Source of the DNA: Lachnospiraceae bacterium
Lineage (GTDB): Bacteria; Bacillota; Clostridia; Lachnospirales; Lachnospiraceae
Assembly (NCBI GenBank): GCA_016285575.1
Contig: JAEEQX010000003.1
Span: 781 to 64,780, forward strand
DNA: 64,000 bases
Reading direction: 5' to 3'
The translations under genes and the position numbers were made by a program. Below, piece after piece: positions 13,336 to 60,919 of the stretch (positions are counted from its first letter, which is position 1; every line of letters starts with the position of its first letter). The notes under the pieces were generated by a model. The model saw only the letters and a list, made by a program, of their open reading frames with translations, had not been told where the DNA came from and searched no databases.

Positions 13336-13433
13336 GTTAGATGCATCTAACCGTGTTTACGATTAAATGGCAGTTAAGGTTAGTCTTCCTTAACTGCCAT
13401 ATCTTTTATATCATATAGTATTTATTTTATCAA
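13336..13433 (-). promoter_or_regulatory. ECF-1 promoter with DtxR-type boxes and a 5' hairpin
   Basis: TTGATA (13433-28), 17 nt, TGn-TATAAA (13410-05); hairpin 13367-13400; GTTAG-ATGCAT-CTAAC 13336-51; GTTAG-TCTTCC-TTAAC 13379-94. Confidence 0.8.
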
Positions 13434-13459
13434 CTAAAAATGTACCAAAAATATAACAT

Positions 13460-15199
13460 TTATACAGCCAATTTCCAGGAAATTGCTTCCTTACGTTCAT
13501 TAACGAAGTCTTTATATAATCCATCCTTGGCCATAAGTTCTTCATGTGTGCCCTTATCTATAATCTTACCATCAGATACAACCAAGATTTGATCAGCATG
13601 TCTGACAGTTTTTAATCTGTGTGCAATCATAATAATGGTCTTTTCTTTAGTAAGTTCTTTGATTGCTTCTGTAATCTCTGCTTCGTTTTCAGGGTCCACA
13701 TTTGCTGTGGCTTCATCAAGAATGATTATAGGAGAATCCTTCATGATAGCTCTTGCAATTGAAATACGCTGTTTTTCGCCTCCTGACAAAGACGCTCCTC
13801 CCTCTCCGATAATAGTTTCATACCCATTAGGAAGAGTCATAATAAAGTCATGACATCTTGCTTTCTTAGCCGCTTCGATAACCTGATCCATTGAAGCATC
13901 GGGATTACCAAATCTTATATTATTGGCAATAGTATCTTCAAAAAGATACACTCTCTGGAATACGAAACTGAAGTTTTTCATAAGCGAATCGAAACTGTAT
14001 TCCTTGACGTTCTTGCCGTCCAATAAAACCTCACCCGAATTTACATCCCAGAATCTTGCCAAAAGATTAGTTAATGTTGTTTTTCCGCCACCGGAAGGTC
14101 CTACGATAGCTGTGGTTGTCTTTTCAGGTATCACTACTGATACATCATCAATAATGGTTTTTTCCTCATATGAGAAAGATATATTTTTCATTTCGAGATT
14201 CGAGCTTTGGGGCTCAATATCTTCTCCATCAATATCCATAGGTTTGAGCTTTAATACCTCGTCCGCTTTTGAAACAACAATATTTACTGTTCTCATAAGT
14301 GCAGAGAAAGAACCCATCATATCAAGACTTTCATATACCATAAACGAAGAAATAATCATAAGTATTGCATACAAAAGCGACATAGAACCATTAAGGTAAA
14401 ATACAATAGACGCCAAACACATCAATACACCTGTAAGCTTTGTGGTAATTCCCTGTAATGTCATATAAGGAACTACAGCAAACTCAAGTTTAGTATCAGC
14501 ATTTTGCTTTTCAACAATCGCATTCTCAAGTTTTACTGCTGTCTTATCTGTAAGATTAAAATTCTTTACTTCTGCAATGCCAAGCACGTATTCGATTACT
14601 GCCACAACCAAGTTTTCATCGGCCTTATCTTTTCTGGGCGCAACAGGTTTTGTCGCGTTTTGCATAAAAGTATTGAAAACAGAGAAAACTATTATACCAA
14701 GCAGGAGAATCATAGCGATTCTAATATCAAAAATCAGGAGAAAAAGAAATATAACAAACGTCGTTATGATTCCCTGCGTCGATATCATGACAATTCTTGT
14801 TGCAACATCTGCAAGCATTTCCATAGTGTTAGTTGTTATGTTGGTAATCTTTCCGAGACTGTTTTTATTAAAATATCCCATAGGAAGATATCTTAAGTGT
14901 TCTGCAATTTCCATTCTCTTGGAACTGCATGTGTTGTATCCGGCCTCAGTCTGAAGCATCGTTGTTTTTAGTCCTATAAGTATCTGACCAAGTATTGATA
15001 CTCCCATTATCGCAATTGCCATCCATATATTGGTCATACTCATGTTCTTTTCAAGTAATCCTCTTAAAATGATAGCGATCGCAGGAATACGAAGTGTAGC
15101 AAACATTGACTTGAAAACTCCGAGTATCATCGCAGTTAAGAGTTTCTTTCTATTGGTTTTATCACAAAAATCAAAATACAATTTTAAAGTCTTAAACAT
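13460..15199 (-). CDS. ABC transporter permease/ATPase, IrtB/YbtQ-like subunit (pair 1)
   Basis: TMD + NBD (GPSGGGKT, LSGGEKQR, ILDEAT, AHRL); TAATG coupling to the upstream gene puts the start at 15199. Confidence 0.88.
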   Translation of the reverse strand: MFKTLKLYFDFCDKTNRKKLLTAMILGVFKSMFATLRIPAIAIILRGLLEKNMSMTNIWMAIAIMGVSILGQILIGLKTTMLQTEAGYNTCSSKRMEIAEHLRYLPMGYFNKNSLGKITNITTNTMEMLADVATRIVMISTQGIITTFVIFLFLLIFDIRIAMILLLGIIVFSVFNTFMQNATKPVAPRKDKADENLVVAVIEYVLGIAEVKNFNLTDKTAVKLENAIVEKQNADTKLEFAVVPYMTLQGITTKLTGVLMCLASIVFYLNGSMSLLYAILMIISSFMVYESLDMMGSFSALMRTVNIVVSKADEVLKLKPMDIDGEDIEPQSSNLEMKNISFSYEEKTIIDDVSVVIPEKTTTAIVGPSGGGKTTLTNLLARFWDVNSGEVLLDGKNVKEYSFDSLMKNFSFVFQRVYLFEDTIANNIRFGNPDASMDQVIEAAKKARCHDFIMTLPNGYETIIGEGGASLSGGEKQRISIARAIMKDSPIIILDEATANVDPENEAEITEAIKELTKEKTIIMIAHRLKTVRHADQILVVSDGKIIDKGTHEELMAKDGLYKDFVNERKEAISWKLAV

Positions 15200-16953
15200 T
15201 ATGCCACCTCCGAATCCTTCGAAGAAATGTGTGCTTCCCACATCTCTTTGTATAAGGATGATTCTTTCAATAATTCTTCCTGTGTTCCAACGGCTTCTAT
15301 ATTGCCATCGTTAACCACGATTATTTGGTCGGCAGACACTATAGTTGAAAGTCTATGTGCTATAACAATCAATGTCTTACCCTGTACTAGTTTAGCAACT
15401 GATTTTTGAATAATTGCTTCATTTTCAGGATCTGTATAAGCTGTTGCTTCATCAAGAATAACAATCGGTGCATCTTTAAGCATAGCTCTTGCAATACTGA
15501 TTCGCTGTCTTTCACCACCTGAGAGATGACCACCGGCGCCTCCGGCCAATGTATCATAACTGTTTTCAAGATTAGTAATAAACTCATGGCATCCACATGC
15601 TTTGGCTGCATTGACTACATCATCATCAGAAGCGGAAGGATTGCCCATTCGAATGTTTTCCATAATTGTCTCATCGAATAAGTAGTTATCCTGTGATACA
15701 TAAGCTATATACTTGTTGTAATCTTCTAAAGGAATATCCTTAATGTTAATTCCGCCATAAGTAATCTCGCCTTCATCAACATCCCAAAATGAAGCAATCA
15801 GCTTTGCAATAGTTGATTTACCTGATCCTGAAGGACCGACTAGAGCATTAACGCTACCCTCTTTTATCTTAAGATTAATTCCGTGTAGAACCTCTTTATC
15901 CTTATATCCAAAATGAACATTTTTGAACTCGATATTATTGTCAACAGGTAATTCCTTGGCTGTCTTAGGACGAATCAATTCTCTTTTATTAAGAATAGAT
16001 GTAGCCTCGTTAATGATTGCACCTGTTTTTGATAATTCATCCATATGTCCGGCAATAATCATAAAAGGAGCAATAAGTCCAAGTGATAATATAATCAACA
16101 TAAGCGCATCAGATGCTTCGATACGACCGGTCATATAAAGCCAACCGGTAAAAGGAAGTAAAGAGATTAAAAAGCTCGGCATTATCGACATCGCAAGATT
16201 CTGCCATACATTACATCTTCTCATCCATTCAATAAAACAATCAGCACCCTCTTTTGCAGCTACAACTAATTTTTCGTACGAAGTTTTTGATTTACCAAAA
16301 GCCTTGATTACTTCAATACCGTTAATATATTCAACCGCTGTGTCATTAAGTGCCTTGGTCTTAATCATTGTATTCTCAAAACTTTCCTTCGCACCTACCA
16401 TCATAAGAGAATAAAAGATTCCACCCACAGGTACACATATCATAGCCAATAAAGTTAGTTTCCAGTTGATTATAAGCATTATAACGAACACGCCTACAGG
16501 TACGATTGCGTTAGATATAAGCTCCGGCACTATATGCGCTAAGGTTGTCTCTACCGAATCAACTCTCTCAACAATGATATTTTTAAGTGATCCTGAAGAA
16601 TCATCCAATACATCTCCAAGAGGCATAAGGCTTAACTTCTTGGTCAAATTTCTACGTATCTGTGCCAATACTCCGAATGTAGCCTTGTGAGATGCTGTAG
16701 TCGAAAAAGCATGAAACAACTTATTTATAATCCAGCATATACATATTAATCCGCACTGAATCAAATAATACTTCATATCTGCGTTGCCCTCGATAAGCGC
16801 TGCAACTATTCTGGCTACAAAGAAATAAGGAACGAATCCTGCAGCTACACTGATAATCGCGAATATAACACTGAACACATAGGATGGAGCATCCATCTTG
16901 GTGAATTCAAGAACCCACGATATCATTGACTTGTTTTTTGTCTTTTTGTCCAT
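15199..16953 (-). CDS. ABC transporter permease/ATPase, IrtA/YbtP-like subunit (pair 1)
   Basis: SHKATF, ETTLAHIVPE, GPSGSGKS, LSGGERQR. Confidence 0.88.
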   Translation of the reverse strand: MDKKTKNKSMISWVLEFTKMDAPSYVFSVIFAIISVAAGFVPYFFVARIVAALIEGNADMKYYLIQCGLICICWIINKLFHAFSTTASHKATFGVLAQIRRNLTKKLSLMPLGDVLDDSSGSLKNIIVERVDSVETTLAHIVPELISNAIVPVGVFVIMLIINWKLTLLAMICVPVGGIFYSLMMVGAKESFENTMIKTKALNDTAVEYINGIEVIKAFGKSKTSYEKLVVAAKEGADCFIEWMRRCNVWQNLAMSIMPSFLISLLPFTGWLYMTGRIEASDALMLIILSLGLIAPFMIIAGHMDELSKTGAIINEATSILNKRELIRPKTAKELPVDNNIEFKNVHFGYKDKEVLHGINLKIKEGSVNALVGPSGSGKSTIAKLIASFWDVDEGEITYGGINIKDIPLEDYNKYIAYVSQDNYLFDETIMENIRMGNPSASDDDVVNAAKACGCHEFITNLENSYDTLAGGAGGHLSGGERQRISIARAMLKDAPIVILDEATAYTDPENEAIIQKSVAKLVQGKTLIVIAHRLSTIVSADQIIVVNDGNIEAVGTQEELLKESSLYKEMWEAHISSKDSEVA

Positions 16954-16966
16954 TTACATCCTCCTT

Positions 16967-16986
16967 GAGTTAGTTTAGTCTAACTC
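16967..16986. promoter_or_regulatory. DtxR-type box upstream of ABC pair 1
   Basis: GAGTTAG-TTTAGT-CTAACTC, directly upstream of the SD. Confidence 0.8.
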
Positions 16987-16995
16987 TATTATTTT

Positions 16996-17862: not shown

Positions 17863-18135
17863 TCAACACTCCTTCAGAACTTCCCACATCGTGCCCATGT
17901 TTTTAAAGCCACCTTCAGGCGCACAGCTTTTACACTTTTGTCCATCCTTGCATCCACCACAAGTAGAGCAATCATGTCCCTGAGCTTCAACGTAGCCTGT
18001 TCTTCTTATTACGCCCATGCGCTCTAAAAAGTCCATATCTCTTTGAACATTCTCTGTGGATTCCCCTAATTCTTCAGCGAGCATTTCTATAGTTCTGGAT
18101 CTTCCGTCTTTTAACAATTCAATTAGTTTTTGCAT
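17863..18135 (-). CDS. feoC: FeoC-like winged-helix protein with Cys cluster
   Basis: wHTH N-terminus plus CSTCGGC-x5-CKSC; directly after feoB. Confidence 0.75.
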   Translation of the reverse strand: MQKLIELLKDGRSRTIEMLAEELGESTENVQRDMDFLERMGVIRRTGYVEAQGHDCSTCGGCKDGQKCKSCAPEGGFKNMGTMWEVLKEC

Positions 18136-18160
18136 AGGACCTTCTCCTAAAAAAACATAT

Positions 18161-20185
18161 TTAGAAAATCAATAATCCAAGATAATAAGCAGCACCTGCT
18201 AAAAGAAGAGCTACTACTGTATAGTATCCACCAATAATTGCTGTCCATTTTGCAGAGTGTGTTTCCTGATATGTTGCAGCGAGTGCAACGATACAAGGCA
18301 TATTGAATGTCATAGCGAATATTAATGCGAGGCCCTCAGGTCTTGATATATTGGTCAGCATTAATTCATTAAAGTTGCTTGCCTTCTCAGCAGCCATAAG
18401 GGAACCCATTGTAAGTGTGCCTGAATTGGTATAAAGCATACTGAGAACTCCAAGTGCGCCCTCCTTACCAAGTGAAGAAGCGAGGAATGCTAAGAATGAC
18501 TGCCAGCTTAATCCAACAAGCTTTGTTGCAGGCTCTACAAAATGACCGAACTTATAAAGAATACTGTTGGTAATATTTCCATCCTTGGTAAATGACAAAA
18601 GCCAGAAAACAAATGCAACCAAGATTACCACTTTACTAGCTCTTAAGAATGTATCTTTTGTTCTGCCGAATACGTAACGTAGAAGTGCACCCCATCTGGG
18701 CTTATGATAAGGAGGAAGTTCCATTATCATACCGTATCTTTCTTCGGGCTTTACAAGGAAACGTCCAAAAATAAATCCTGTAACACAGATATGAAGAATC
18801 ATAACGATTAAAATTGCCAAGATAACCACAGGCGCCCATGCTCCAAAGAATATTGTTGAAAGCAAGGGAATAACAGCCCATGCAGCTCCACAAGGTATAG
18901 CCCAAGAAAGAGCAATTGTTAATACCTTCTGTCCCCAGTTATCAATAACTCTGGTACCTGCAGCACCACCCATGGTACAACCGAAACTTATAAGGAAAGG
19001 CATTACACTCTTACCCTGAAGGCCAAACTTGCTCATAGAGTTATCAAACACATATGAAACTCTCGCCATCAAACCTATCTCTTCAAGTAGGCCAAACACT
19101 AAAGTAACACCAAATACGAATCCTAACATCTGCACAACAAATGATATACATCTAATAAAAATATCGCATAGCAGTGAAGAAACTATCGATGGACAACCTA
19201 TTCCATCAAGAATTGCTATCAAAGGATCGGGTATCTTAGCTATAGCCTGTCCTATACCCATAAAAGGAAGTGCCGGAATGAATGATGCAATCAATCCGCC
19301 AAAGATTATTGCAATAACAACAATCTTACCCCAGAATCTATGGGTGATTACTCTGTCAAACTTTCCAAGTGTTGCAGATTTCTTTTCGCTCTTTACTGCT
19401 CCATCAAGCAATTCATCAATCCAAGCAAATTTTCTTTCGCCTGCTATAACAACACCGTTTTTAATGCCGGCAATTATATTTTCAAAAGTTTTGGCATTAT
19501 CTCCCGAAAGAACTCCCTTTATCTTAGCTATTACAGGAGCATCTCCTTCTATAGCCTTGATAGTAAGCCATGTGCTAGAGTAGCCTGGAATAATATTCTC
19601 AGGTATTATCTCTTTTAATCTGCTGTATGCTTCTATTCCTGCATACTTTTCTTCGAGAGCGCTGTAGTCAAGTGTAGACTGTTTAATCAATGCTCTGTTA
19701 AGTGCTGTATAAAAGCCATCATAAGATTTCTTGTCAGGCGCAGAGAAAGGAACTACAGGAATACCAAGCTTCTTCTCAAGTGCCTTGGCATCAATTGTCT
19801 TTCCTTGAAGTTCTGCAACATCACTCATGTTAAGTAATAAGAAACAGGGAACTGTAATACCAGCATAATCAGCAAGCATATATAAGCTTCTGCTAAGCTG
19901 TGAACTATCAGCCAAGATACATACAACGTCAGCCTTTCCCGATGCAATGTAATCTCTCGTAATCATCTCCTCATCGGAGTTTGCAGATAAACTGTAAGTT
20001 CCGGGAAGATCGGCTACTACATATTTCTTATCATCATGTTTAAATGAACCCTCTTTTTTCTCTACAGTCTTACCTGGCCAGTTACCTACATGCTGACGCA
20101 TACCGGTAAGAGCATTAAAAAGTGTTGATTTACCCGAGTTGGGCTGACCCAAGAGGGCTATTACGTATTCATTATCAGCTGTCAT
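18161..20185 (-). CDS. feoB: Ferrous iron transporter FeoB, copy 1
   Basis: GQPNSGKS, GNWPGKTVE, DLPG, NMSD, PFLISFGC, MELPPYH. Confidence 0.95.
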   Translation of the reverse strand: MTADNEYVIALLGQPNSGKSTLFNALTGMRQHVGNWPGKTVEKKEGSFKHDDKKYVVADLPGTYSLSANSDEEMITRDYIASGKADVVCILADSSQLSRSLYMLADYAGITVPCFLLLNMSDVAELQGKTIDAKALEKKLGIPVVPFSAPDKKSYDGFYTALNRALIKQSTLDYSALEEKYAGIEAYSRLKEIIPENIIPGYSSTWLTIKAIEGDAPVIAKIKGVLSGDNAKTFENIIAGIKNGVVIAGERKFAWIDELLDGAVKSEKKSATLGKFDRVITHRFWGKIVVIAIIFGGLIASFIPALPFMGIGQAIAKIPDPLIAILDGIGCPSIVSSLLCDIFIRCISFVVQMLGFVFGVTLVFGLLEEIGLMARVSYVFDNSMSKFGLQGKSVMPFLISFGCTMGGAAGTRVIDNWGQKVLTIALSWAIPCGAAWAVIPLLSTIFFGAWAPVVILAILIVMILHICVTGFIFGRFLVKPEERYGMIMELPPYHKPRWGALLRYVFGRTKDTFLRASKVVILVAFVFWLLSFTKDGNITNSILYKFGHFVEPATKLVGLSWQSFLAFLASSLGKEGALGVLSMLYTNSGTLTMGSLMAAEKASNFNELMLTNISRPEGLALIFAMTFNMPCIVALAATYQETHSAKWTAIIGGYYTVVALLLAGAAYYLGLLIF

Positions 20186-20186
20186 C

Positions 20187-20414
20187 TTAGATGCATACCT
20201 CCATTTCTATGTTGGAACAATCCTTACGGTTAAGCGCAATCATAGTGTCTCTTGAGTACACTAAGATAGGTCTGTTCTTTTCATTTTTAATCATGGATAA
20301 CTTGCATCCCGGAGTAAGGCCAATGGATGTTATTCGGCTTACAAATCTTGGGTCGCCGACAACAGACACAACTTTACCTTCTGCTCCTTTTTTCATTTCT
20401 GTCAGTTTAATCAT
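20187..20414 (-). CDS. feoA: FeoA, copy 1
   Basis: 75-aa SH3-like protein (RITSIGLTPG) directly before feoB. Confidence 0.88.
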   Translation of the reverse strand: MIKLTEMKKGAEGKVVSVVGDPRFVSRITSIGLTPGCKLSMIKNEKNRPILVYSRDTMIALNRKDCSNIEMEVCI

Positions 20415-20465
20415 GACTTCCTCCTGTATATTAACTTAATTATTTACAAAACATTCGAACAATAA

Positions 20466-20843
20466 TTAATTGCTAATATCAAATGAAAGCATAGTGAATC
20501 CTGCATCATTCACAATGTTACGGACTCTGCTCAACTCAATATCACTCTTGGTAAGCAGTACTACTTGTCTTTTTTCAAGATTGGCTTTTGCCCATACGCC
20601 GTCCTGTGTATTGAATTCGTTTTCAATCTTTCTTACGCATCCGCTGCAATGCATACCATCAACTCCAACAATGTATTTGTGCGAATAATTCTTCTTATTC
20701 TTATCTTTAACCTTTACCTTGGATGGAGCCGCTTCTTTTTCACCACAGCACGCTGATCCGTATTTAATCCTTCTTACAGTTCCAAACACGGATACGACAA
20801 CTACTATCGCCACTATTAATGCAGTTATAATTGTTCCTGCCAT
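20466..20843 (-). CDS. Membrane-anchored heavy-metal-associated (HMA) domain protein
   Basis: N-terminal TM helix, GSACCG, then VDGMHCSGC HMA motif. Confidence 0.8.
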   Translation of the reverse strand: MAGTIITALIVAIVVVVSVFGTVRRIKYGSACCGEKEAAPSKVKVKDKNKKNYSHKYIVGVDGMHCSGCVRKIENEFNTQDGVWAKANLEKRQVVLLTKSDIELSRVRNIVNDAGFTMLSFDISN

Positions 20844-20861
20844 AACACTCCCTATTAATTC

Positions 20862-21485
20862 CTACTTCTTAGCAATCACTGTAATCCATGGTTTAGACTC
20901 ATGATGAAAAGACTTAACTTCCTTGAATCCTGCCGAAATGATCGCTGATTCAATATCCTCTATTGTGTAGCATTTCATTCCTTCGATGATGCTCTCGTAT
21001 TTAAGACTTGCTTCATCCTTACCATCGGATTCATTAACTATCATGAAAGTTCCTTCATCCTTTAACACTCTGAAAACTTCAGAAAAGCATCTATGAAGAC
21101 CGGGCCAGAAATAGATAGTCTCAAAAGCAGTTGCTAACTCAAACTTGCCGTCAGGAAGATTAAGATTGGATACATCACCTTGTTTAACTTCGCATCTTCC
21201 GTTATCGATAGCTTCTTTGTTGTAATTAGTTGCCTTTTCTACAGATACATCAGAATAGTCAACCGCTGTCATATATGCGGAGGGATATTTCTTCATGAGT
21301 TCTCCGGCGTTTCTGCCACCGCCACAGCCGATTTCCAATAAATATGTAGGATATTCAACCTGAAGGTGCGACATACCCCAATCCGCCATTGCTGCATGGC
21401 CACCATTCATGCCATTAACCATCATCTTGCCGAGAACTCCTTCAGGCTTTCTCGTCTGACTTACAAAGTTTTTGTAGAGACCCAT
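20862..21485 (-). CDS. Class I SAM-dependent methyltransferase
   Basis: LEIGCGGG motif I, AFETIYFW, VLKDEG; start ATG 21485 after GGAGGA. Confidence 0.9.
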   Translation of the reverse strand: MGLYKNFVSQTRKPEGVLGKMMVNGMNGGHAAMADWGMSHLQVEYPTYLLEIGCGGGRNAGELMKKYPSAYMTAVDYSDVSVEKATNYNKEAIDNGRCEVKQGDVSNLNLPDGKFELATAFETIYFWPGLHRCFSEVFRVLKDEGTFMIVNESDGKDEASLKYESIIEGMKCYTIEDIESAIISAGFKEVKSFHHESKPWITVIAKK

Positions 21486-21536
21486 AATCCTTCCTCCGAA
21501 CAATTTATATAAATATTTAAATATTTTGTTATTTGA

Positions 21537-21656: not shown

Positions 21657-23399
21657 TCACATTTTCCAGTTCTGTGACTTTAACTGCTGTTTTGTCATAC
21701 GAGAATAGATACTGTCGAATCCTGATAAGTATTCAGGACTACCTTGTTCAGCAACAACACCGTCTTTTAATACTACGATATTGTCAGCATTAGCAATGGT
21801 TCTCATACGGTGTGCGATAATAAGAACCGTCTTGTTCTTAATAAGTCTTGAAAGTGCTTCCTGAATAGCTGTTTCATTCTCAGCATCAAGAGATGCAGTT
21901 GCTTCATCAAGAAGAATAACAGGTGCATCCTTAAGAAAAGCTCTGGCAATTGATATTCTCTGTCTCTCACCACCTGATAATTCGCTACCGTTTTCGCCTA
22001 TATTAGTATTGTATTTATCAGGCAAGAGATTAACGAATTCCTCGCAGTTGGCAAGTCGCGCTGCTTCCATTACTTCTTCATCAGTCGCTCCGCTCTTACC
22101 GATTCGTATATTCTCCATAACGGAATTATTGAAAAGCGTAACATCCTGGAAAACTATTGAGTACTTAGAAAGTAATGTTTCAGGGTCGATCTCAGATACA
22201 TCCTGTCCGCCCAGTGTAATAGTACCACTATTAACATCCCAGAATCTCGCAGCAAGTCTTGATATTGTTGTCTTACCACCTCCGGAAGGTCCGATAAGTG
22301 CTGTTACTTCACCCTGCTTAGCAGTAAAGCTTACATCTGAAAGAACGTCTGTATCATCTGAATACTTGAATCCAACATGATCAAATACAATATCGTATCC
22401 ATCAACTTTTAACTTATCCGAACCGGTCTGAATCTCATGAGAGAGAACTTCATCAAGTCTTTCACACTGAATACCAGTAGCAATAATAGCTGCAAAGTTT
22501 TGAAGTGATATCTCCATAGGAGCATATAATCTGGATACGATCATCAAGAACATGAAGAATGTTAAGATGTCGATATCGCCTTTTGCAAATAAGATACCAC
22601 CCATAATTGCTGTTGTACCGATGCCAAGTTTAAGTACGATTGCTGCAGAGTTTACATATACAGCCATCTTAAGTTCTGTAAAGAGCGCGAACTTTTCTAC
22701 CTTCTTAATCTTGCCATCAAGTTCTTCCATATATCTGTCTTCAGAATTATTAGCTCTTAAATCCCTGATTGACTCAAGACATTCCTGGATACCATCGGAC
22801 ATGTCGAGTTTGATAGCCTGATTCTTTCTTACTGCTCTCTTTTCTGCACCTGAGCAAGTAATTATAATAATGAATGCAACAGGTATTACCCAGAAAGCCG
22901 CAAGTACCATTCTCCAATCAAAGAAGATAAACATACTGATACCAACCAAAGCAACTGAGATTACAGCTCCGATCAGTTCGGGAATCCAGTGGCTTGATGC
23001 TGTCTCAATCATTGCACAGTCGCCCATGATATTGGTTGTAAGGTCTGCGATATTCTTTTTACCAAAATATGAAAGAGGTAGTTTTCTAAGTTTCTCAGCA
23101 ATCGCTGTTCTTCTTACACCACTTTCACGGTATGTAGTTAAAAATGTTGCATTATACTGAATAAAGTTGGTAATCGCTATGAGAAGAAGAATTATTATTG
23201 AGGCGATTACATAAAAAGGAATTCTTTCCTTGGTTAATCCGTTATTGAGTAAATCTTTTATTAATGTGTAGAGCACACCTGCAGGCAGCATCAAAACCAT
23301 ATCCGTTAATGTAACGCAGACGCACGCCTTGATCATATCTTTTGCGCCCTGTCTTGAAAGGGCATATTTATGTTGTAATTTCTCTATCATCTTATGCAC
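21657..23399 (-). CDS. ABC transporter permease/ATPase (pair 2, second subunit)
   Basis: TYRESG, SHWIPEL, GPSGGGKT, LSGGERQR. Confidence 0.88.
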   Translation of the reverse strand: MHKMIEKLQHKYALSRQGAKDMIKACVCVTLTDMVLMLPAGVLYTLIKDLLNNGLTKERIPFYVIASIIILLLIAITNFIQYNATFLTTYRESGVRRTAIAEKLRKLPLSYFGKKNIADLTTNIMGDCAMIETASSHWIPELIGAVISVALVGISMFIFFDWRMVLAAFWVIPVAFIIIITCSGAEKRAVRKNQAIKLDMSDGIQECLESIRDLRANNSEDRYMEELDGKIKKVEKFALFTELKMAVYVNSAAIVLKLGIGTTAIMGGILFAKGDIDILTFFMFLMIVSRLYAPMEISLQNFAAIIATGIQCERLDEVLSHEIQTGSDKLKVDGYDIVFDHVGFKYSDDTDVLSDVSFTAKQGEVTALIGPSGGGKTTISRLAARFWDVNSGTITLGGQDVSEIDPETLLSKYSIVFQDVTLFNNSVMENIRIGKSGATDEEVMEAARLANCEEFVNLLPDKYNTNIGENGSELSGGERQRISIARAFLKDAPVILLDEATASLDAENETAIQEALSRLIKNKTVLIIAHRMRTIANADNIVVLKDGVVAEQGSPEYLSGFDSIYSRMTKQQLKSQNWKM

Positions 23400-25246: not shown

Positions 25247-25864
25247 TTATTCAATACCCATAATTCTTAACCATCCCGGCATAAAGAATTCTTGTATGAG
25301 ATTCAGGTATTTATCTATCTGTTTTTCATTATAATCATGAATTATAGGTTCAAAACACGCAGTTAAATAAGCCGATAAAAGAAAATGTAATTCTTCTTCG
25401 GACACGGTCTTAACCTTATATCCTTTTTTCTTAAGAAACTTTAACGCATCCAAGAATTCCTTTTGATTCTCATTGGTAAGGTCATGAATAAAATTCTCAT
25501 ACTTAGTTCCTGCAGAACAAGTCATAAGAAGTATGAATTCCTGTCTTCTTGGTAAGATGACATTTCTAATAAGATCAATAAATGACTCACCAAAGAGTTG
25601 CTCACCTGTAGGGTTACTGTCAACTAAATCATACTTCTTGCTGGTATGATTTTTAAGCCAGCTCTTCATTTCATCAACAAGAGGGCTGACCATACCTTCA
25701 AACATGGCTTCTTTATCAGCATAATGTCTGTAAAGACCGGCAGATGTCATACCTGCTCTGGCGCCAATGCTTCTAATGGAAGCAGCTTCATACCCTTTTT
25801 CAAGGAACTCCTCCATAATCGCTTTATTTACTCTTACATGACTTAACGACTTATCTCTTGGCAT
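25247..25864 (-). CDS. TetR/AcrR-family regulator 2 (paralogue of tetR-1)
   Basis: MPRDK start, ASIRSIG..MTSAGLYRHYADKEAMF. Confidence 0.92.
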   Translation of the reverse strand: MPRDKSLSHVRVNKAIMEEFLEKGYEAASIRSIGARAGMTSAGLYRHYADKEAMFEGMVSPLVDEMKSWLKNHTSKKYDLVDSNPTGEQLFGESFIDLIRNVILPRRQEFILLMTCSAGTKYENFIHDLTNENQKEFLDALKFLKKKGYKVKTVSEEELHFLLSAYLTACFEPIIHDYNEKQIDKYLNLIQEFFMPGWLRIMGIE

Positions 25865-25883
25865 AATTCTTACCCAAATAAAA

Positions 25884-25952: not shown

Positions 25953-25955
25953 TAA

Positions 25956-26903: not shown

Positions 26904-26908
26904 ATTGA

Positions 26909-46088: not shown

Positions 46089-46128
46089 AATTATTCAAAA
46101 TCCTCCGATTTTTGTGGATGAAAAAATT

Positions 46129-46632: not shown

Positions 46633-46671
46633 ATCACTGTACTCCTTTAAATATGTGTTTCCAATTATCAA

Positions 46672-48396: not shown

Positions 48397-48397
48397 C

Positions 48398-50131: not shown

Positions 50132-50171
50132 AATTAATCCTTTCTGTAATGATGTATTATTACCGTAGAAT

Positions 50172-50289
50172 GAGGCAGATTGAAGAATCAATCCGCCTCT
50201 CCTGAAATGTGTAAAAGAAAATGTGTTATTCTAGTTAGTTGTTTCTAACCTTCTGTATATTAGCACTCGAAGAGTTAGTTGTCAATAAC
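50172..50289 (-). promoter_or_regulatory. ABC pair 3 promoter, two DtxR-type boxes and a leader hairpin
   Basis: TTGACA 50285-80, 17 nt, TGn-TAATAT; GTTAG-TTGTTT-CTAAC 50234-49; GTTAG-TTGTCA-ATAAC 50274-89; hairpin GAGGCGGATTGA-TTCT-TCAATCTGCCTC 50199-72. Confidence 0.78.
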
Positions 50290-50296: not shown

Positions 50297-50875
50297 TTAT
50301 TTTTTATATTTACACAGCTTTTTTACAGCTAATATATCAAGCGATACACCGCTTTTATATCTCTCCTTATATATACTTGTGCACTTATCAAAAAGATTGA
50401 ACCTCTTTTTGGCCTCATTGATGTCTCCGTACACCTTCCAATAGCCAACGCACTTATAGCCCTTGGCTTTATTGTCTATGAAGCCCCTAACATCTTCGAC
50501 CGGATAGCCTAAAAATATACCTATCTCATGAGGAAAATCATTTACTGCTTTCATACTGCTTAGTCGCTCTTTTAATCTGATTATGCAATCTTCGAAATCA
50601 TATCTGTCATAACCGAATCTTTTTAATAATTCTTTTGATTCAGAGCACATCAAGTCCCTTTTTAATAAATCCGGTCTGAATACATACAAAAGAATCTTAT
50701 TATTCATACGGTTAACTATCTCGATTTTAATTCCTTTTTCTTCAAAGTACTTATTATATTCAGTTATCTCTTTTTCAAATGAATCAAAATCTTTGCAATC
50801 GTATAAGAAAAGATTGCCTGTTTTAATCCCGGCAAGAGTTGGAGCGCAATTATCGATCAAATTAAGGTCAGACAT
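50297..50875 (-). CDS. DUF3793-family protein
   Basis: CAPTLAGIKTGNL, FPHEIGIFLGYPVEDV, GYWKVY; adjacent to flavodoxin. Confidence 0.85.
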   Translation of the reverse strand: MSDLNLIDNCAPTLAGIKTGNLFLYDCKDFDSFEKEITEYNKYFEEKGIKIEIVNRMNNKILLYVFRPDLLKRDLMCSESKELLKRFGYDRYDFEDCIIRLKERLSSMKAVNDFPHEIGIFLGYPVEDVRGFIDNKAKGYKCVGYWKVYGDINEAKKRFNLFDKCTSIYKERYKSGVSLDILAVKKLCKYKK

Positions 50876-50896
50876 ATAATATCCTTTCTATAATTG

Positions 50897-50931
50897 AAAA
50901 GAGCAAATCGTGTATGCAGACGATTCGCTCT
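50897..50931 (-). terminator. Hairpin with U-tract after flavodoxin
   Basis: Minus AGAGCGAATCGT-CTGCATAC-ACGATTTGCTCT-TTT. Confidence 0.6.
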
Positions 50932-50997
50932 AATCAAGTACGGCTATTCCCTTGTTAAAAAGGGAGGGAAAATATATAATGGTAAAAATTGGCTAGC

Positions 50998-51420
50998 TTA
51001 GTTAAGTGATGCACCAAGTGCTTTGCAATTAGCGATGTCTGCATCATTGGGAGCCTCGTTAGCTATAAGGCCCTCATTAATGAGATTGATTCCTGAAGAC
51101 TTACATCTGTCAACCCAATCTCTCATCCACTGACCGTCACCCCATCCGTATGATCCGAATAAAGCAACTTTCTTATACTTGATTAAAGGTTCAACCGCTG
51201 TAAACATAGGATTGAATTCAGTATCATCAAGTTCTTCTGCACCCATTGCGGAGCAACCAAAAGCGAACGCATCATAATCATCAACCTTAGTAGCGTCAAA
51301 CTCAGAAGACTTAAAAATGTCTGCTTCGGCACCAGCCATTTTAGCACCTTCCAAGATAGCGTTAGCCATTGCTTCCGTATTACCGGTACTGCTGTAATAA
51401 ACTACTGCAATCTTGCTCAA
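50998..51420 (-). CDS. fld: Short-chain flavodoxin
   Basis: YYSSTGNTEAMA, FGCSAMG, LFGSYGWGDGQW; TTG start after AGGAGG. Confidence 0.93.
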   Translation of the reverse strand: MSKIAVVYYSSTGNTEAMANAILEGAKMAGAEADIFKSSEFDATKVDDYDAFAFGCSAMGAEELDDTEFNPMFTAVEPLIKYKKVALFGSYGWGDGQWMRDWVDRCKSSGINLINEGLIANEAPNDADIANCKALGASLN

Positions 51421-56387: not shown

Positions 56388-57170
56388 TTAACTTAATGCC
56401 ACATCGAGCGCCATCATAAGTATAAAGCCTACCGAAAATGCCAAAGTTCCTATATTGGAATGCTTGCCCACAGACATCTCCGGAATGAGTTCTTCTATAA
56501 CGACATATACCATTGCTCCTGCTGCGAAGCTTAAAAGATATGGCATAACCGGCACAAAGAATCCGGCTGCGAATATTGTGAGCAAAGCTCCTATCGGCTC
56601 TACCGCTCCCGACAGCGCACCCTTGGCGAATGCGTGAATTTTACTGTCTCCGTTGGCATTAAGTGGCATCGATATGATGGCTCCCTCAGGAAAATTCTGT
56701 ATAGCTATACCTATCGCAAGAGCAAGCGCTCCTCCTGCCGTAATATATGAATTGCCGGCTATCATTCCTGCATATACAACTCCGACTGCCATTCCCTCAG
56801 GAATATTGTGAAGTGTAACCGCAAGAACCATCATCGTTGTTTTCTTGAAATTACTTTTAGGTCCTTCTGCTTTTTCCGCATTCATATGAATATGCGGAGT
56901 TATCACATCTAAAAGAAGCAAGAATAGCATTCCCAACCCGAATCCAATTGCTGCAGGTAAAAACGCTAACTTGCCCATATCTTTTGACTGATCAATCGCA
57001 GGGACGATAAGGCTCCATATAGCTGCAGCGACCATAACGCCACTTGCGAATCCTGTCAGGGCCTTTTGTATCCTCTCGGATAAATTCTTTTTGAGAAAGA
57101 ATACGCATGCAGACCCCAATGCCGTACCAATAAAAGGAATTATTAATCCTAAGCTTACATCTTTGATCAT
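56388..57170 (-). CDS. ZIP-family (ZupT-like) divalent metal transporter
   Basis: GFASGVM, LHNIPEGMAVG, IQNFPEG, ELIPE. Confidence 0.92.
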   Translation of the reverse strand: MIKDVSLGLIIPFIGTALGSACVFFLKKNLSERIQKALTGFASGVMVAAAIWSLIVPAIDQSKDMGKLAFLPAAIGFGLGMLFLLLLDVITPHIHMNAEKAEGPKSNFKKTTMMVLAVTLHNIPEGMAVGVVYAGMIAGNSYITAGGALALAIGIAIQNFPEGAIISMPLNANGDSKIHAFAKGALSGAVEPIGALLTIFAAGFFVPVMPYLLSFAAGAMVYVVIEELIPEMSVGKHSNIGTLAFSVGFILMMALDVALS

Positions 57171-57205
57171 AACTCGCACTCCTCTCTATTGTTATTAAAC
57201 TATCC

Positions 57206-57604
57206 TTACTTAACAAGTTTTAATGCATACGTGTTAAAAGCGTTGGAATTATATAGTCTTTCGAGGCAATTATAAGTTTCTTCGCCTATGATATGTTCTA
57301 TGTCTCCTGCTTCTTCCAATGCATTGTCTTTGCTGACTCCTATTTTAAGTAAGAATCCCGCAAGCATAAGATGCTTGTCATATACTTTTTGTGCAATCTC
57401 TCTGCCTGAATCCGTAAGTGTAATGAATCTGTCTTCGCCAAACACAATATAGTTCTTATCCTGTAATTTTTTTACCATCGCACAAACCGTAGGTTTTGTT
57501 ACTCCTAGTTTGTGAACTATATCCACGGATCTGACCGAACCTTTGGATTTTTGCAATATTAAAATGCATTCCAGATAATCTTGTGTTAAGTTGTTTTTTT
57601 GCAT
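57206..57604 (-). CDS. DtxR/MntR-family metal-dependent regulator, copy 2
   Basis: QDYLECI, TKPTV helix, DKH, EEAGDIEH. Confidence 0.88.
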   Translation of the reverse strand: MQKNNLTQDYLECILILQKSKGSVRSVDIVHKLGVTKPTVCAMVKKLQDKNYIVFGEDRFITLTDSGREIAQKVYDKHLMLAGFLLKIGVSKDNALEEAGDIEHIIGEETYNCLERLYNSNAFNTYALKLVK

Positions 57605-57789
57605 CGAATATCCCCGTTCTTAACGCTCTTGCAGGCTGTGCACATCTTACAATGTGCACAGTTCCCGCCACAGGTTGATTTACCCTGTTTTTTATCCTTA
57701 ATCATCACTTTAATTATGAATACCACAACAGCAATTAAGACTAATAATGTAATCAATGTACCTATATTTGAAATAAGCCATGCTATCAT
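57586..57789 (-). CDS. FeoB-associated Cys-rich membrane protein
   Basis: TM helix then CGGNCAHCKMC; directly after feoB. Confidence 0.85.
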   Translation of the reverse strand: MIAWLISNIGTLITLLVLIAVVVFIIKVMIKDKKQGKSTCGGNCAHCKMCTACKSVKNGDIRCKKTT

Positions 57790-57849
57790 ACCTATACCTC
57801 CTGCTGTTATTGTTGTTATATAAACCTTTTATTCATTCTCCAAAAATTA

Positions 57850-60285
57850 TTATTTTGTAAGCTTATCTGCTTCTTTGTACTTCTTGATAAAGAGCATGTA
57901 GATCATTCCCGCAAGTAAAGCGATTGCAGCAATTAATCCGAAGATATTGAAGTTGCCTGTGAATGCTCCGCCAATCTGGTTGATAATGAGTGCAATTACA
58001 TATGCGAATCCACACTGATAGCCGATTGCGAACCATGTCCACTTAGCGTTATTCATCTCTCTCTTGATAGCACCGATTGCTGCGAAGCAAGGAGCGCAAA
58101 GGAGGTTGAATACAAGGAATGAGAATCCTGATACACCGCTGAATTTAGAAGCAAGTACCTGATATACTGTCATGCCTTCTACACCGCCGTACAATACGCC
58201 CATTGTACCAACGATATTTTCCTTAGCAACCAAACCTGTGATTGAAGCTACGGCTGCCTGCCAGTTGCCCCATCCAAGAGGAATGAAGATCCAAGATACA
58301 AGGCTACCTACCTTAGCAAGAATCGAAAGGTTAACTTCCTCTTCTTCGAGCATTCTGAACGCGCCGTCAGCTACACCGAAGTTAGATAAGAACCAGATAA
58401 CGATTGTTGAAAGAAGGATGATTGTACCGGCCTTCTTAATGAATGACCAGCCTCTCTCCCACATTGAACGAAGTACGTTCTTAAGTGTAGGCATATGATA
58501 TGCAGGAAGCTCCATAACGAAAGGAGCAGGATCTCCTGAGAACATCTTGGTCTTCTTAAGCATGATACCCGAGATAATGATTGCTGCCATACCGATGAAG
58601 TATGCACTTACTGATACAATCCATGAACCATGGAATAATGCACCTGCAACCATTGCTATAAAAGGAATCTTAGCACCACAAGGAATAAATGTTGTGGTCA
58701 TGATTGTCATTCTTCTATCTCTCTCGTTCTCGATAGTTCTTGAAGCCATGATACCCGGAACACCACATCCTGTTCCTACAAGCATAGGAATGAAGGACTT
58801 ACCCGATAAACCGAATCTTCTGAAGATTCTATCAAGCACGAATGCAATTCTTGCCATGTATCCGCATGCTTCCAAGAAAGCAAGAAGGAAGAAGAGAACT
58901 AACATCTGAGGTACGAAACCGAGTACTGCACCTACACCGCCGATAACACCATCGAGGATTAAGCTCTTAAGCCAATCAGCACAATTGATTGCATCAAGAA
59001 TTGATTCAGCTACTGCAGGAATACTGGGTACCCATACACCGTAGTTAGCGGGATCAGGTTCTTCGCCATCATATGATTTGAATGTCTCTACTGCTTCTGC
59101 TAATTCATCGTATGTATATGTAACATCTTCTGTAGAGAGTGTTTCTTCATCTTCCAATGTATAATCAGCTGTTGTGCCTTCTTCTACTTCTGCAAAAGCA
59201 GCTTCGATTGAAGCAACATCTGCATCTTCATCAAGTCCGATAAATGCATCGATTACGTTAGCCGCATCACCATACTCTTCACTAGCCTCACCGTATGCAC
59301 CTGAGCCAATGCCAAAAAGATGCCATCCGTCTCCGAAGAGTCCGTCGTTAGCCCAATCGGTAAGCATGGTACCGGGCGCAAATGATGCCATAGATAACAT
59401 ATAAACAAGAGTCATAATGATTGCAAATATAGGAAGACCGAGCCAACGGTTGGTAACGATCTTATCGATCTTATCCGAAGTTGTAAGCTCGCCTGCTTTT
59501 TTCTTTTTATAACAAGCCTTTATAACAGAAGCGATATATACATATCTTTCATTGGTGATAATACTCTCTGAGTCATCATCAAGTTCTGTTTCAACTGCCT
59601 GAATATCTTTTTCAATATGTGCCTTAGTCTCACTTGAGAGATTAAGTTTTTCGAGTACCTTTTCATCACGCTCGAAGAGTTTGATAGCATACCACCTCTG
59701 CTGCTCTTCGGGAAGATCGTGAACTGTAACTTCCTCGATGTGAGCAAGTGCATGTTCAACTGTACCCTGGAATGTATGCTGAGGAACTGTTTTTGTTCCC
59801 TTAGCAGCCTTGATAGCTTCGTTAGCTGCATCCATTACGCCTTCATTCTTAAGAGCTGATATCTCGACAATCTTGCAGCCAAGCTGTCTTGATAATTCAT
59901 CTACATTGATTTCATCGCCGTTCTTTCTGACAACATCCATCATGTTGATAGCGATAACTACGGGAATACCGAGTTCTGTAAGCTGTGTAGTAAGATATAA
60001 GTTTCTCTCAAGGTTAGTACCATCAATAATATTAAGGATTGCATCAGGTCTTGTGCCGATGAGATAATCTCTTGCTACAACTTCTTCCAATGTATAAGGA
60101 GAAAGTGAATATATACCGGGAAGGTCTGTGATAGTAACGTCGCTATTCTTTTTTAACTTACCTTCCTTCTTTTCTACTGTAACTCCGGGCCAGTTACCTA
60201 CGAACTGATTGGAGCCTGTTAATGCATTAAATAATGTTGTTTTACCACTGTTAGGGTTACCTGCAAGTGCAATTGTAAGACTCAT
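57850..60285 (-). CDS. feoB: Ferrous iron transporter FeoB, copy 2 (with acidic insertion)
   Basis: GNPNSGKT, GNWPGVTVE, DLPG, NMMD, GTGCGVP, MELPAYH. Confidence 0.96.
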   Translation of the reverse strand: MSLTIALAGNPNSGKTTLFNALTGSNQFVGNWPGVTVEKKEGKLKKNSDVTITDLPGIYSLSPYTLEEVVARDYLIGTRPDAILNIIDGTNLERNLYLTTQLTELGIPVVIAINMMDVVRKNGDEINVDELSRQLGCKIVEISALKNEGVMDAANEAIKAAKGTKTVPQHTFQGTVEHALAHIEEVTVHDLPEEQQRWYAIKLFERDEKVLEKLNLSSETKAHIEKDIQAVETELDDDSESIITNERYVYIASVIKACYKKKKAGELTTSDKIDKIVTNRWLGLPIFAIIMTLVYMLSMASFAPGTMLTDWANDGLFGDGWHLFGIGSGAYGEASEEYGDAANVIDAFIGLDEDADVASIEAAFAEVEEGTTADYTLEDEETLSTEDVTYTYDELAEAVETFKSYDGEEPDPANYGVWVPSIPAVAESILDAINCADWLKSLILDGVIGGVGAVLGFVPQMLVLFFLLAFLEACGYMARIAFVLDRIFRRFGLSGKSFIPMLVGTGCGVPGIMASRTIENERDRRMTIMTTTFIPCGAKIPFIAMVAGALFHGSWIVSVSAYFIGMAAIIISGIMLKKTKMFSGDPAPFVMELPAYHMPTLKNVLRSMWERGWSFIKKAGTIILLSTIVIWFLSNFGVADGAFRMLEEEEVNLSILAKVGSLVSWIFIPLGWGNWQAAVASITGLVAKENIVGTMGVLYGGVEGMTVYQVLASKFSGVSGFSFLVFNLLCAPCFAAIGAIKREMNNAKWTWFAIGYQCGFAYVIALIINQIGGAFTGNFNIFGLIAAIALLAGMIYMLFIKKYKEADKLTK

Positions 60286-60301
60286 TTTTATTCTTCCTTT
60301 C

Positions 60302-60523
60302 CTACTCTACTTCAACCATCTCAGCATCTGCTTTACGAAGTGAGAGCTCATAATTTCTAACTGTAAGTTCAATAGGATCTCCAAGGGGAGCAACTTTTCT
60401 AACTGTTACTTCTGTTCCCTTAGTTAAGCCCATATCCATGATTCTTCTTTTTACTGCACCTTCACCATGGAGTTTTTTGACTGTAGCTTTTTCTCCGATT
60501 TTCACATCTCTTAATGTTTTCAA
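60302..60523 (-). CDS. feoA: FeoA
   Basis: RRIMDMGLTKG..APLGDPIE..LRKADA; TTG start. Confidence 0.93.
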   Translation of the reverse strand: MKTLRDVKIGEKATVKKLHGEGAVKRRIMDMGLTKGTEVTVRKVAPLGDPIELTVRNYELSLRKADAEMVEVE

Positions 60524-60560
60524 ATCTTTATCCTCCTTATATTGTTAATATGAATCTTTA

Positions 60561-60773
60561 TTAGACCATAATCTTTCTGGCCAATTCATCACTCAGAGCA
60601 ACTCTGCTTTCCTTGATATTAACTATCAGGTTGCCTCCAAGTGTATTAACTACGCTCACTGTACCTCCGACATTGAATCCCAGATCTTCCAAGTGCTTCT
60701 TTACCTCGGGGCTACCACCGATTTTTTTGATGATCTGCTCTTCTCCCGGATCTGCTAATACTAATGGCATCAT
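60561..60773 (-). CDS. feoA: FeoA
   Basis: KHLEDLGFNVG..SRVALS. Confidence 0.9.
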   Translation of the reverse strand: MMPLVLADPGEEQIIKKIGGSPEVKKHLEDLGFNVGGTVSVVNTLGGNLIVNIKESRVALSDELARKIMV

Positions 60774-60796
60774 ATCTTTCCTCCTGAAAAGCCTTT

Positions 60797-60919
60797 GTTA
60801 GTTTTAACTAACCCTTTAGCTTTTAATATAAGTTAGATTTCTCTAACCCTTATGCCAACAAAATAGGTTAGCAACATCTAACCATGTATTATAATAATTA
60901 GTTGTCGCTAACCTGTCAA
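60797..60919 (-). promoter_or_regulatory. feo-2 promoter with four DtxR-type boxes
   Basis: Boxes start at 60797, 60832, 60867 (perfect) and 60897 (ATTAG); TTGACA 60919-14, 17 nt, TATTAT. Confidence 0.85.

Follow-up and report, generated by a model that had tools for sequence, protein, structure and literature searches.

Among the genes of a 64,000-nucleotide stretch of a Lachnospiraceae genome (contig JAEEQX010000003.1 of assembly GCA_016285575.1, positions 781 to 64,780; hereafter the window), a short palindrome, GTTAG-N6-CTAAC, recurs in front of transcription units that include two Feo systems and a flavodoxin, and the window also encodes two proteins of the DtxR family of metalloregulators. 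A gene map was built from the list of open reading frames (ORFs) and from Pfam and NCBIfam scans of 62 ORFs, giving 93.4% coding DNA (59.8 kb) and 4232 bp of intergenic DNA; both GC skew and ORFs place nearly all genes on the minus strand. The nearest proteins to those of the window come from Lachnospiraceae metagenome-assembled genomes, and the window DNA itself occurs in sheep and bovine gut metagenomes.

A motif search recovered 15 perfect copies of the palindrome (GTTAGNNNNNNCTAAC), reproducing every coordinate given by an earlier interpretation made from the letters alone (the sequence-only reading), compared with a mean of 0.03 and a maximum of 1 across 100 dinucleotide-preserving shuffles; the earlier chance estimate of about 0.1 perfect copy per 64 kb was thus of the right order. 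At one mismatch or fewer, we count 23 copies (15 perfect and eight one-mismatch) against 1.2 expected by shuffling: the seven one-mismatch copies already listed were found again, and an eighth at 10434-10449 (GTTAGACTAATCGAAC), upstream of the regulator gene that we call DtxR1, had been missed. All 23 are intergenic, as the sequence-only reading had held of its copies, even though non-coding DNA makes up 6.6% of the window, and none touches a coding region; a motif spread through coding DNA, named beforehand as a sign against a regulon, is not what the window contains, with no copy in its 59.8 kb of coding sequence. Two-mismatch copies, by comparison, show the pattern predicted by chance (eight coding, none intergenic). 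The core TTAG-N6-CTAA occurs 17 times where 1.7 are expected, and all 17 belong to the sites described here.

In a symmetrised matrix, whether from the 15 window sites or from 357 sites of other loci, the information is confined to the half-sites and the 6-bp spacer is nearly free. Weak flank preferences (R before GTTAG, not G just inside) give a fuller form, R-GTTAG-H-N4-D-CTAAC-Y, and the most frequent tolerated mismatch turns the outer G to A while the TTAG core stays intact. The half-site centres lie 11 bp apart, or one helical turn, and this spacing combined with perfect dyad symmetry points to a dimeric helix-turn-helix protein and not to an RNA hairpin. Where sites are arrayed, two to four copies have starts 25-49 bp apart, clustering near 25, 30, 35, 40 and 45. 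In crystals of IdeR on DNA, each subunit reads one CCTAA repeat, with one dimer on repeats 1 plus 3 and a second dimer on repeats 2 plus 4 (PMC8464063); it follows that a single-dimer site is TTAG-N6-CTAA with a 5-bp offset to its neighbour, which is the core found here, and the same source bears out the earlier description of the DtxR/IdeR box as two such dimer sites staggered by 5 bp. A half box binds a single IdeR dimer in vitro with a comparable Kd (PMC8464063). The 19-bp iron box itself, TTAGGTTAGSCTAACCTAA (four pentamer repeats, two dimers), has no match in the window at three mismatches or fewer.

The sites fall into 13 control regions and mark 13 transcription units (TU1 to TU13) over 50 kb, or 14 when the DtxR1 gene's own site is counted; the previous figure of about 12 units over 48 kb was approximately right and is refined accordingly. 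The longest array precedes TU13 (56388..60773, minus strand), which encodes FeoA, FeoA, FeoB, a FeoB-associated Cys-rich peptide, the second DtxR-family protein (DtxR2) and a ZIP/ZupT-like transporter. Its four sites span 60797-60912 (perfect copies at 60797, 60832 and 60867, a one-mismatch copy at 60897), and in the predicted feoA promoter (60919-60891) the site at 60912-60897 occupies the -35/-10 spacer, with three more following at 30-35 bp steps. A second Feo system lies in TU3 (17863..21503, minus strand; methyltransferase, HMA-domain protein, FeoA, FeoB and a 90-aa winged-helix protein), behind a putative operator pair at 21537-21552 (perfect) and 21582-21597 (one mismatch). TU12 (50297..51420, minus strand) comprises a short-chain flavodoxin (50998-51420), a terminator-like hairpin and a DUF3793 protein (50297-50875); its predicted promoter, TTGACA-16-TATAAT at 51573-51546, matches the consensus at 12 of 12 positions, and of its two perfect sites one (51530-51545) directly abuts the -10 while the other (51481-51496) lies in the leader. 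Feo and flavodoxin, the latter a ferredoxin substitute, are textbook iron-starvation genes, and the predicted gene set behind the sites, with two Feo systems and a flavodoxin, is a classic iron-starvation set.

Transporters of other kinds make up much of the remainder. TU1 (9993..13301, minus strand) is by Pfam assignment a first energy-coupling factor (ECF) operon, with an MptD/Trep_Strep S component (12705-13301), matched by NCBIfam TIGR02185 ('MptD family putative ECF transporter S component'), a CbiQ-type T component (12000-12704), a double ATPase (10460-11998) and DtxR1. It is preceded by a perfect site at 13336-13351 and a one-mismatch site at 13379-13394; the additional site at 10434-10449 sits before DtxR1, just upstream of a weak promoter-like TTGTTT-17-TATAAT. 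A second MptD/Trep_Strep ECF transporter (S, T, double ATPase) forms the plus-strand TU7 (32240..35166) and shares the divergent control region 32114-32220 with TU6: the perfect site at 32205-32220 faces TU7, and the one-mismatch site at 32114-32129 (ATTAG...) faces the minus strand. Three heterodimeric pairs of ATP-binding cassette (ABC) proteins with the exporter fold follow sites of their own. Pair 1 (TU2, 13460..16953, minus strand; 584 and 593 aa, with ABC_membrane and ABC_tran domains) and pair 2 (TU4, 21657..25155, minus strand) each have a single perfect site, at 16969-16984 and 25185-25200. Pair 3 is encoded with a 180-aa protein lacking a family match and an alpha/beta hydrolase in TU11 (45330..50191, minus strand). 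These ABC pairs probably serve haem or metallophore uptake, and together with the MptD-type ECF modules they offer, by analogy, a plausible iron- or haem-uptake link for targets that at first sight have no tie to metals.

The other units are more varied. TU5 (25247..27505, minus strand; TetR, BAAT_C-type hydrolase, TetR) has a single perfect site at 27553-27568, in the spacer after a TTGACA. TU6 (27638..32079, minus strand) encodes the membrane protein DUF6796, an Abhydrolase_3 esterase, DUF6796, an ATC_hydrolase-like protein, a PEMT/ICMT-type membrane methyltransferase and, across a 107-bp gap, an LCM-type methyltransferase. TU8 (35167..40388, minus strand) holds a methyltransferase, a 177-bp gap, DUF6796, two BAAT_C hydrolases, two proteins without a family match and DUF6796, behind a pair at 40405-40420 (perfect) and 40449-40464 (one mismatch). 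TU9 (40543..43634, minus strand), with DUF6110, a P1B heavy-metal P-type ATPase (504 bits against TIGR01525, above its cut-off) and a shikimate-kinase-fold kinase, follows one perfect site at 43659-43674, itself after a hairpin at 43707-43694. TU10 (43845..45146, minus strand) is enolase alone (655 bits against TIGR01060). Enolase and ABC pair 3 share a layout in which one site contains the -35 and a second follows the -10: for enolase (promoter 45312-45284) the one-mismatch site 45301-45316 holds the -35 TTGACA and the perfect site is 45261-45276, and for pair 3 (promoter 50285-50257) the corresponding sites are 50274-50289 (one mismatch) and 50234-50249 (perfect). Across 43-61 kb, four of the five best minus-strand sigma-70-like promoters overlap sites. 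The sequence-only reading had every copy over or just downstream of -35/-10 elements, which stands for the confidently predicted promoters but not for 16969, 25185 and 43659, whose promoters could not be placed. The sole sizeable site-free unit in the region, a TetR gene (TetR_d) with a MacB-like ABC transporter, carries a different palindrome twice, ATAACAATGTTAT (TAACA-N-TGTTA core), at 55533-55587 upstream of the MacB-like ABC genes and at 56324-56351 over a strong promoter-like sequence (56377-56349) before TetR_d; this is probably the TetR_d operator.

RNA is available for one of these promoters. The flavodoxin gene and its leader are covered by RNA contigs from three sheep-rumen metatranscriptomes, with an upstream end at 51524-51526, about 20 nt past the predicted -10. 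None of the contigs reaches the upstream gene, one runs straight into adapter, and their 3' ends stop just before the terminator-like hairpin. These ends fit the predicted promoter, contigs being a weak guide to RNA ends. Within the same leader, the metatranscriptome contigs differ from the window by small indels in an ACA/CA-rich low-complexity run (51440-51470).

Several control regions carry further sequence features. The copies at 13379, 21582 and 40449 are centred in longer inverted repeats (13365-13402, 21567-21604 and 40436-40471) with 11-12 bp arms of the type TTGGCGGTTAAA-N12-TTTAACCGCCAA, for example ATTGGCGGTTAAA...TTTAACCGCCAAT, which lie just past the -10 of ECF operon 1 and of two paralogous methyltransferase units; the longer repeat might serve as another operator or as a 5' stem-loop. 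Such an extension was sought around the sites in all other loci and not found. Site 25185 is instead the left arm of another inverted repeat, ACGTTAGTTATCA-N12-TGATAACTTACGT at 25183-25220, between the gene for TetR_b and ABC pair 2, which may be an overlapping second operator. A near-identical stretch (…CATTTTATAACACACTATTTATAATTGTTCAA…) recurs, at 21598-21640 and 40465-40507, in the promoters of both paralogous genes for a 213-aa methyltransferase, suggesting recent duplication of promoter and gene together. Finally, the enolase leader of about 137 nt contains a strong hairpin, CCTCTCCTTTTGAC...GTCAAGGAGAGG, at 45195-45239 (minus strand); in two metagenome loci (L104, L115) the orthologous promoters have short leaders without this hairpin.

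Both DtxR paralogues named by the sequence-only reading are present, at 9993-10355 and 57206-57604. DtxR1 (9993..10355, minus strand), the proposed binder of the palindrome, is a 120-aa two-domain DtxR/IdeR-like protein with a winged-helix domain (PF01325) and a dimerisation and metal-binding domain (PF02742), both above Pfam cut-offs; we take its start as the Met at 10355, which is conserved in homologues, the listed ORF extending to 10385. Its closest solved structures are DtxR and IdeR (E ~1e-12), with Met10, His79, Cys102, Glu105 and His106 all aligned. An AlphaFold model (pLDDT 91.6) superimposes on DNA-bound two-domain IdeR/DtxR with a TM score of 0.86-0.89 and a root-mean-square deviation of 1.2-1.4 Å. 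Among 19 homologues, the primary metal site is preserved (Cys102, Glu105 and His106 invariant, Met10 nearly so), and the recognition helix SKPSVS and His79 are invariant or nearly so; at the position of Gln43 the same proteins have Ile, Val, Asn or Arg, and the base that IdeR contacts through Gln43 is correspondingly free in the motif. Two sulfur ligands (Met, Cys) are held to favour Fe2+ over Mn2+, MntR having Asp/Asn and Glu at these positions (PMC11672702). DtxR1 ends at residue 120 and so has no SH3-like domain and none of its ancillary contributors Glu170 and Gln173; of the rest of the ancillary site only His79 is kept, with Thr at 83 (for Glu83) and Ser at 98 (for His98). Relatives number about 8000 or more, in Lachnospiraceae, Oscillospiraceae, Erysipelotrichaceae and other Clostridia. 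In the two closest (L205 and L206; DtxR1 85% and 81% identical), the gene lies amid proC, an aldo-keto reductase and a Na/Ca exchanger. Given this housekeeping setting, the place of DtxR1 at the end of an ECF operon in the window is a local rearrangement, and the 20 kb of housekeeping DNA around the gene in each of the two (40 kb) contains no site even at one mismatch.

The association between motif and regulator extends to other genomes. In 80 genome loci (1.15 Mb) anchored on DtxR1 homologues of 53-63% identity from Lachnospiraceae, Oscillospiraceae, Erysipelotrichaceae and other groups, we found 58 perfect copies, compared with about 0.5 extrapolated from the window shuffles, and GTTAG was by far the top non-trivial palindrome of the 5-N6-5 form. 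All but one of these copies lie upstream of the regulator gene, 34 of them within 300 bp, and in 20 of the 80 loci a site occurs no more than 400 bp upstream of the DtxR1-type gene. Sites are also present in a Butyrivibrio locus (L056).

A second scan made no use of gene information, collecting from metagenomes any two motif copies 12-40 bp apart (120 loci, 719 kb, median 4.9 kb). Behind or near these tandem sites were a DtxR1-type protein in 16 loci, FeoB in 19, DUF3793 in 16, flavodoxin and methyltransferase in 13 each, MacB-type ATPase in nine, exporter-fold ABC in eight and enolase in two, and in two loci the motif precedes genes for NEAT/Shp haem receptors. The iron interpretation put forward earlier is thereby strengthened, with two feoAB sets and a flavodoxin in the window and the same palindrome before feoAB, flavodoxin and NEAT/Shp genes elsewhere, Fe2+ dependence itself being what these genes would imply. 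Those targets that the sequence-only reading had flagged as having no obvious link to metals (enolase, the methyltransferase/esterase cassettes, DUF3793, DUF6796) are conserved members in other loci: DUF3793-flavodoxin pairs stand behind the motif in at least 12, cassettes homologous to TU6 behind tandem sites in three (L086, L146, L198), and homologues of the TU8 methyltransferase behind tandem sites in 13. Orthologous promoters, which had been proposed as a check, keep their layout while spacer bases change: the feoA promoter of L082 runs TTGACA, site, TATAAT, site, site, as in the window, and at enolase (protein 63% identical) L104 and L115 retain both promoter sites with the -10 between them.

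The metagenome matches also include copies of a different appearance. Some of them (in loci L095, L145/L174, L097/L170 and L187) are central to perfect palindromes of at least 30 bp, for example CTATGCAGGTTAGTAGCTACTAACCTGCATAG, and may belong to unrelated elements that share the half-site. A rumen contig (L127; Ga0326513_10004585, 1-9886) has 25 perfect copies in 9.9 kb, embedded between small minus-strand ORFs in larger repeats of the type GTTAGTTAGTCTTAACTAAC. Most of its ORFs have no Pfam match; phrog_20187 is matched by one (E = 1e-44), a second encodes a phage-type nucleotidase/PNK-like HAD protein, and comparison with a phage database gave only three short, weak matches. It looks like a block of large-phage genes, either with a regulator of its own that reads the same half-site or wired to the host iron sensor.

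We propose, with a probability of roughly 0.75, that GTTAG-N6-CTAAC is the operator of a small, SH3-less repressor of the DtxR/IdeR type, DtxR1, governing an iron-starvation regulon. On this proposal, Fe2+ would load the Met/Cys/Glu/His site of DtxR1, and a single dimer would then place its two recognition helices on the TTAG and CTAA half-sites, 11 bp apart. The sites variously lie within the -35/-10 spacer, cover the -35 or +1, or fall in the leader, so that bound protein would block RNA polymerase; as iron falls, DtxR1 would leave and the 13 transcription units would be switched on. These would supply two Feo importers, flavodoxin, two MptD-type ECF importers, three exporter-fold ABC pairs, the P1B ATPase, the ZIP transporter with DtxR2, enolase and the methyltransferase/esterase/DUF6796 cassettes, and arrays of two to four sites, spaced 30-49 bp apart, would add occupancy or cooperativity. 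What we infer here are DtxR1 binding, its stoichiometry of one dimer per site, the Fe2+ signal and the sense of control, repression as opposed to activation, at each site.

A number of observations weigh against this proposal. Binding, metal response and shifts in expression are inferred for this organism, an uncultured ruminant-gut Lachnospiraceae. Since DtxR1 lacks Glu83, His98 and the SH3 domain, its metal selectivity cannot be read with certainty, and it falls below the curated NCBIfam equivalog cut-offs both for DtxR (NF053665; 56 against 290 bits) and for MntR (NF008273/NF003025; 73.6 against 153), its best profile being, below cut-off, the MntR of the E. coli type. The association of motif and regulator rests on a subset of loci: of the 80, 60 lack a site in the 400 bp upstream, and in 53 no site occurs in about 20 kb. 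On the former count and on the site-free L205 and L206 loci, autoregulation is not supported as a general rule, and is best described as common and not universal. Sites 16969, 25185 and 43659 lie between a terminator-like hairpin and a ribosome-binding site, where no confident promoter was placed; some metagenome matches are other elements, namely the long perfect palindromes and the phage-like contig; and repression of a P1B ATPase, normally an exporter, under iron sufficiency does not obviously fit. Lastly, DtxR2 is co-transcribed behind the strongest array, and its recognition helix, TKPTVC, is similar to the SKPSVS of DtxR1; DtxR2 might also bind these sites.

The last point underlies the alternative that DtxR2, or both paralogues, bind the palindrome, in which case the signal would be Mn2+, another metal or a mixture; we consider this unlikely. 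DtxR2 (57206..57604, minus strand) is a 132-aa MntR-like protein whose best solved relatives are MntR (E = 2e-16). Its position in the feo operon behind four sites speaks for it, as do homologues that are always found within feoA-feoA-feoB-(associated peptide)-DtxR2(-ZIP) operons with the same sites, and the two paralogues are related in the recognition helix and 38% identical overall. At the positions of Met10 and Cys102, however, DtxR2 has Asp and Gly. Compared with the MntR site (Asp8, Glu11, His77, Glu99, Glu102, His103), five residues align, the Glu99 position being Gly with a neighbouring Asp, and the protein scores 98.5 bits against the NCBIfam MntR cut-off of 153. Distribution also separates the two: 22 relatives of DtxR2 were found among 5.8 billion proteins, in a word-based search that may undercount distant ones, against about 8000 or more for DtxR1, while the motif spans several families of Clostridia beside DtxR1-type genes. 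DtxR1-type proteins occur in 16 tandem-site loci, whereas a protein best matching DtxR2 does so in only three of the 120 (36-45% identity), and the regulon content is of the iron type (Feo, flavodoxin, NEAT/Shp). We conclude that the regulator is most likely DtxR1 (9993-10355) rather than the MntR-like protein at 57206-57604, and that DtxR2 is probably a member of the regulon and not the binder.

Far less probable is that the sites serve as operators for one or more of the window's four TetR regulators, or for some other local factor (the 90-aa winged-helix protein, for instance), controlling efflux or detoxification in response to an organic ligand. Sites 16969 and 25185 are indeed flanked by a TetR gene on one side and an ABC pair on the other, site 27553 precedes the TetR-hydrolase-TetR unit, and TetR homologues occur in six of the 120 tandem-site loci. 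Yet the same palindrome stands before feoAB, flavodoxin and enolase, including in distant genomes without a nearby TetR, its strongest neighbour across genomes is the DtxR1-type gene, and the TetR_d and MacB-like ABC unit, with its own palindrome ATAACAATGTTAT in two copies, gives a likely example of a local TetR operator; this cross-genome evidence and the distinct TetR_d palindrome lead us to reject TetR operators. The least credible alternative, an RNA hairpin (5-bp stem, 6-nt loop) in leaders or a dispersed repeat with no regulatory role, could draw on the copies in transcribed leaders (51481, 45261, 60797-60867) and on two copies scored as weak hairpins by a promoter/terminator tool, but we reject an RNA element given the lack of any Rfam match in the window, copies that would escape transcription, lying within the -35/-10 spacer or upstream of it (60897, 45301, 50274, 27553), loops and flanks that are not conserved and an 11-bp spacing and dyad symmetry that suit a dimeric helix-turn-helix protein, and a passive repeat would not so fully avoid coding DNA nor track feo, flavodoxin and DtxR genes across families.

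Gut and rumen communities are shaped by iron supply, and major fibre-degrading and butyrate-producing members of them are the Lachnospiraceae and related bacteria, whose control of iron is for the most part uncharted and, by the usual assumption, depends on Fur. In the literature on Clostridia we found neither motif nor regulator described, though an earlier in-silico description may exist, and our results would be a sign that an iron-starvation regulon, apparently not yet described, is widespread in the Clostridia of gut and rumen. A broader and more tentative idea, to which we give somewhat less than even odds, is that a minimal two-domain, IdeR-like protein acting as a single dimer is the master iron sensor of a large share of gut and rumen Clostridia, in the role that is usually attributed to Fur among low-GC Gram-positives. 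If this held across Lachnospiraceae, Oscillospiraceae and Erysipelotrichaceae, the exporter-fold ABC pairs and MptD-type ECF modules would be haem or metallophore importers, the methyltransferase/esterase/DUF6796 genes a pathway, possibly for using plant-derived chelators, DUF3793 a flavodoxin partner, and enolase a gene under iron control, and the phage-like contig with 25 copies would hint that mobile elements read or imitate the iron signal. A 16-bp operator tied to one small regulator would make it possible to predict iron regulons across thousands of genomes of uncultured Clostridia, and would be a test case for single-dimer DtxR/IdeR recognition, so far shown only with half sites in vitro. 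It would also nominate candidates for haem, metallophore or iron-sparing roles: the ABC pairs and MptD-type ECF modules, DUF3793, DUF6796, DUF6110, the methyltransferase/esterase cassettes and the regulated enolase.

The proposed system can be set beside several that are known. With actinobacterial DtxR/IdeR, DtxR1 shares the two N-terminal domains, the fold and the primary ligands Met10, Cys102, Glu105 and His106; the palindrome shares the TTAG/CTAA half-sites and single-dimer spacing of the actinobacterial iron box, and the proposal shares the repression of iron uptake when iron is sufficient. Unlike those proteins, DtxR1 lacks the SH3-like third domain, residues 83 and 98 are not conserved and Gln43 is replaced, and in place of the 19-bp double-dimer box TTAGGTTAGSCTAACCTAA there are separate 16-bp sites, single or arrayed. 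The host lineage differs as well, being low-GC Clostridia, whereas Fe-sensing DtxR proteins have been placed mainly in high-GC Gram-positives and archaea (PMC11672702). The half sites of Saccharopolyspora erythraea IdeR resemble the present ones in that one dimer takes two CCTAA repeats spaced as repeats 1 and 3. Their affinity is comparable to that of some full sites, and they form a minority, degenerate class in vitro beside the canonical box (PMC8464063); here, by contrast, no form but the single-dimer site would be in use, and its conservation is very sharp.

Archaeal two-domain regulators (TroR, Thermoplasma IdeR) are likewise small DtxR-family proteins linked to iron uptake, with TTAG/CTAA-like palindrome arms. 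Archaeal FetR regulons are said to have been predicted by Leyn and Rodionov in 2015. In Haloferax volcanii, TroR recognises TTTAGGC-N3-CCTAAA, and tandem motifs occur about 30 bp apart, either copy sufficing for repression (PMC10783522). The arm spacing and sequence and the domain of life are different, as is the gene content, with siderophore biosynthesis there and Feo, flavodoxin and ECF/ABC transporters here.

Among low-GC Firmicutes, the streptococcal DtxR-family repressors of the MtsR/SloR/ScaR type include MtsR, which controls the sia/hts haem-uptake operons; in these, receptors of the Shp/NEAT kind are combined with exporter-fold ABC pairs and an ECF module of the Trep_Strep/MptD type. 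Genes of these types stand behind the motif both in the window and in two metagenome loci (L152, L129). Regulators of the MtsR type differ in having a third, FeoA-like domain, a response to both Mn and Fe, and long AT-rich operators unrelated to GTTAG-N6-CTAAC. MntR of Bacillus subtilis and Escherichia coli has two domains in about 140 aa, as here, and DtxR2 is the closer of the two paralogues to it; DtxR1 stands apart, its Met and Cys taking the places of Asp/Asn and Glu in MntR, and its regulon is of the iron type and not that of Mn uptake. Taken with these comparisons, our analysis leaves the basic picture of metalloregulation unchanged and would take a known family, its operator simplified, into a new lineage.

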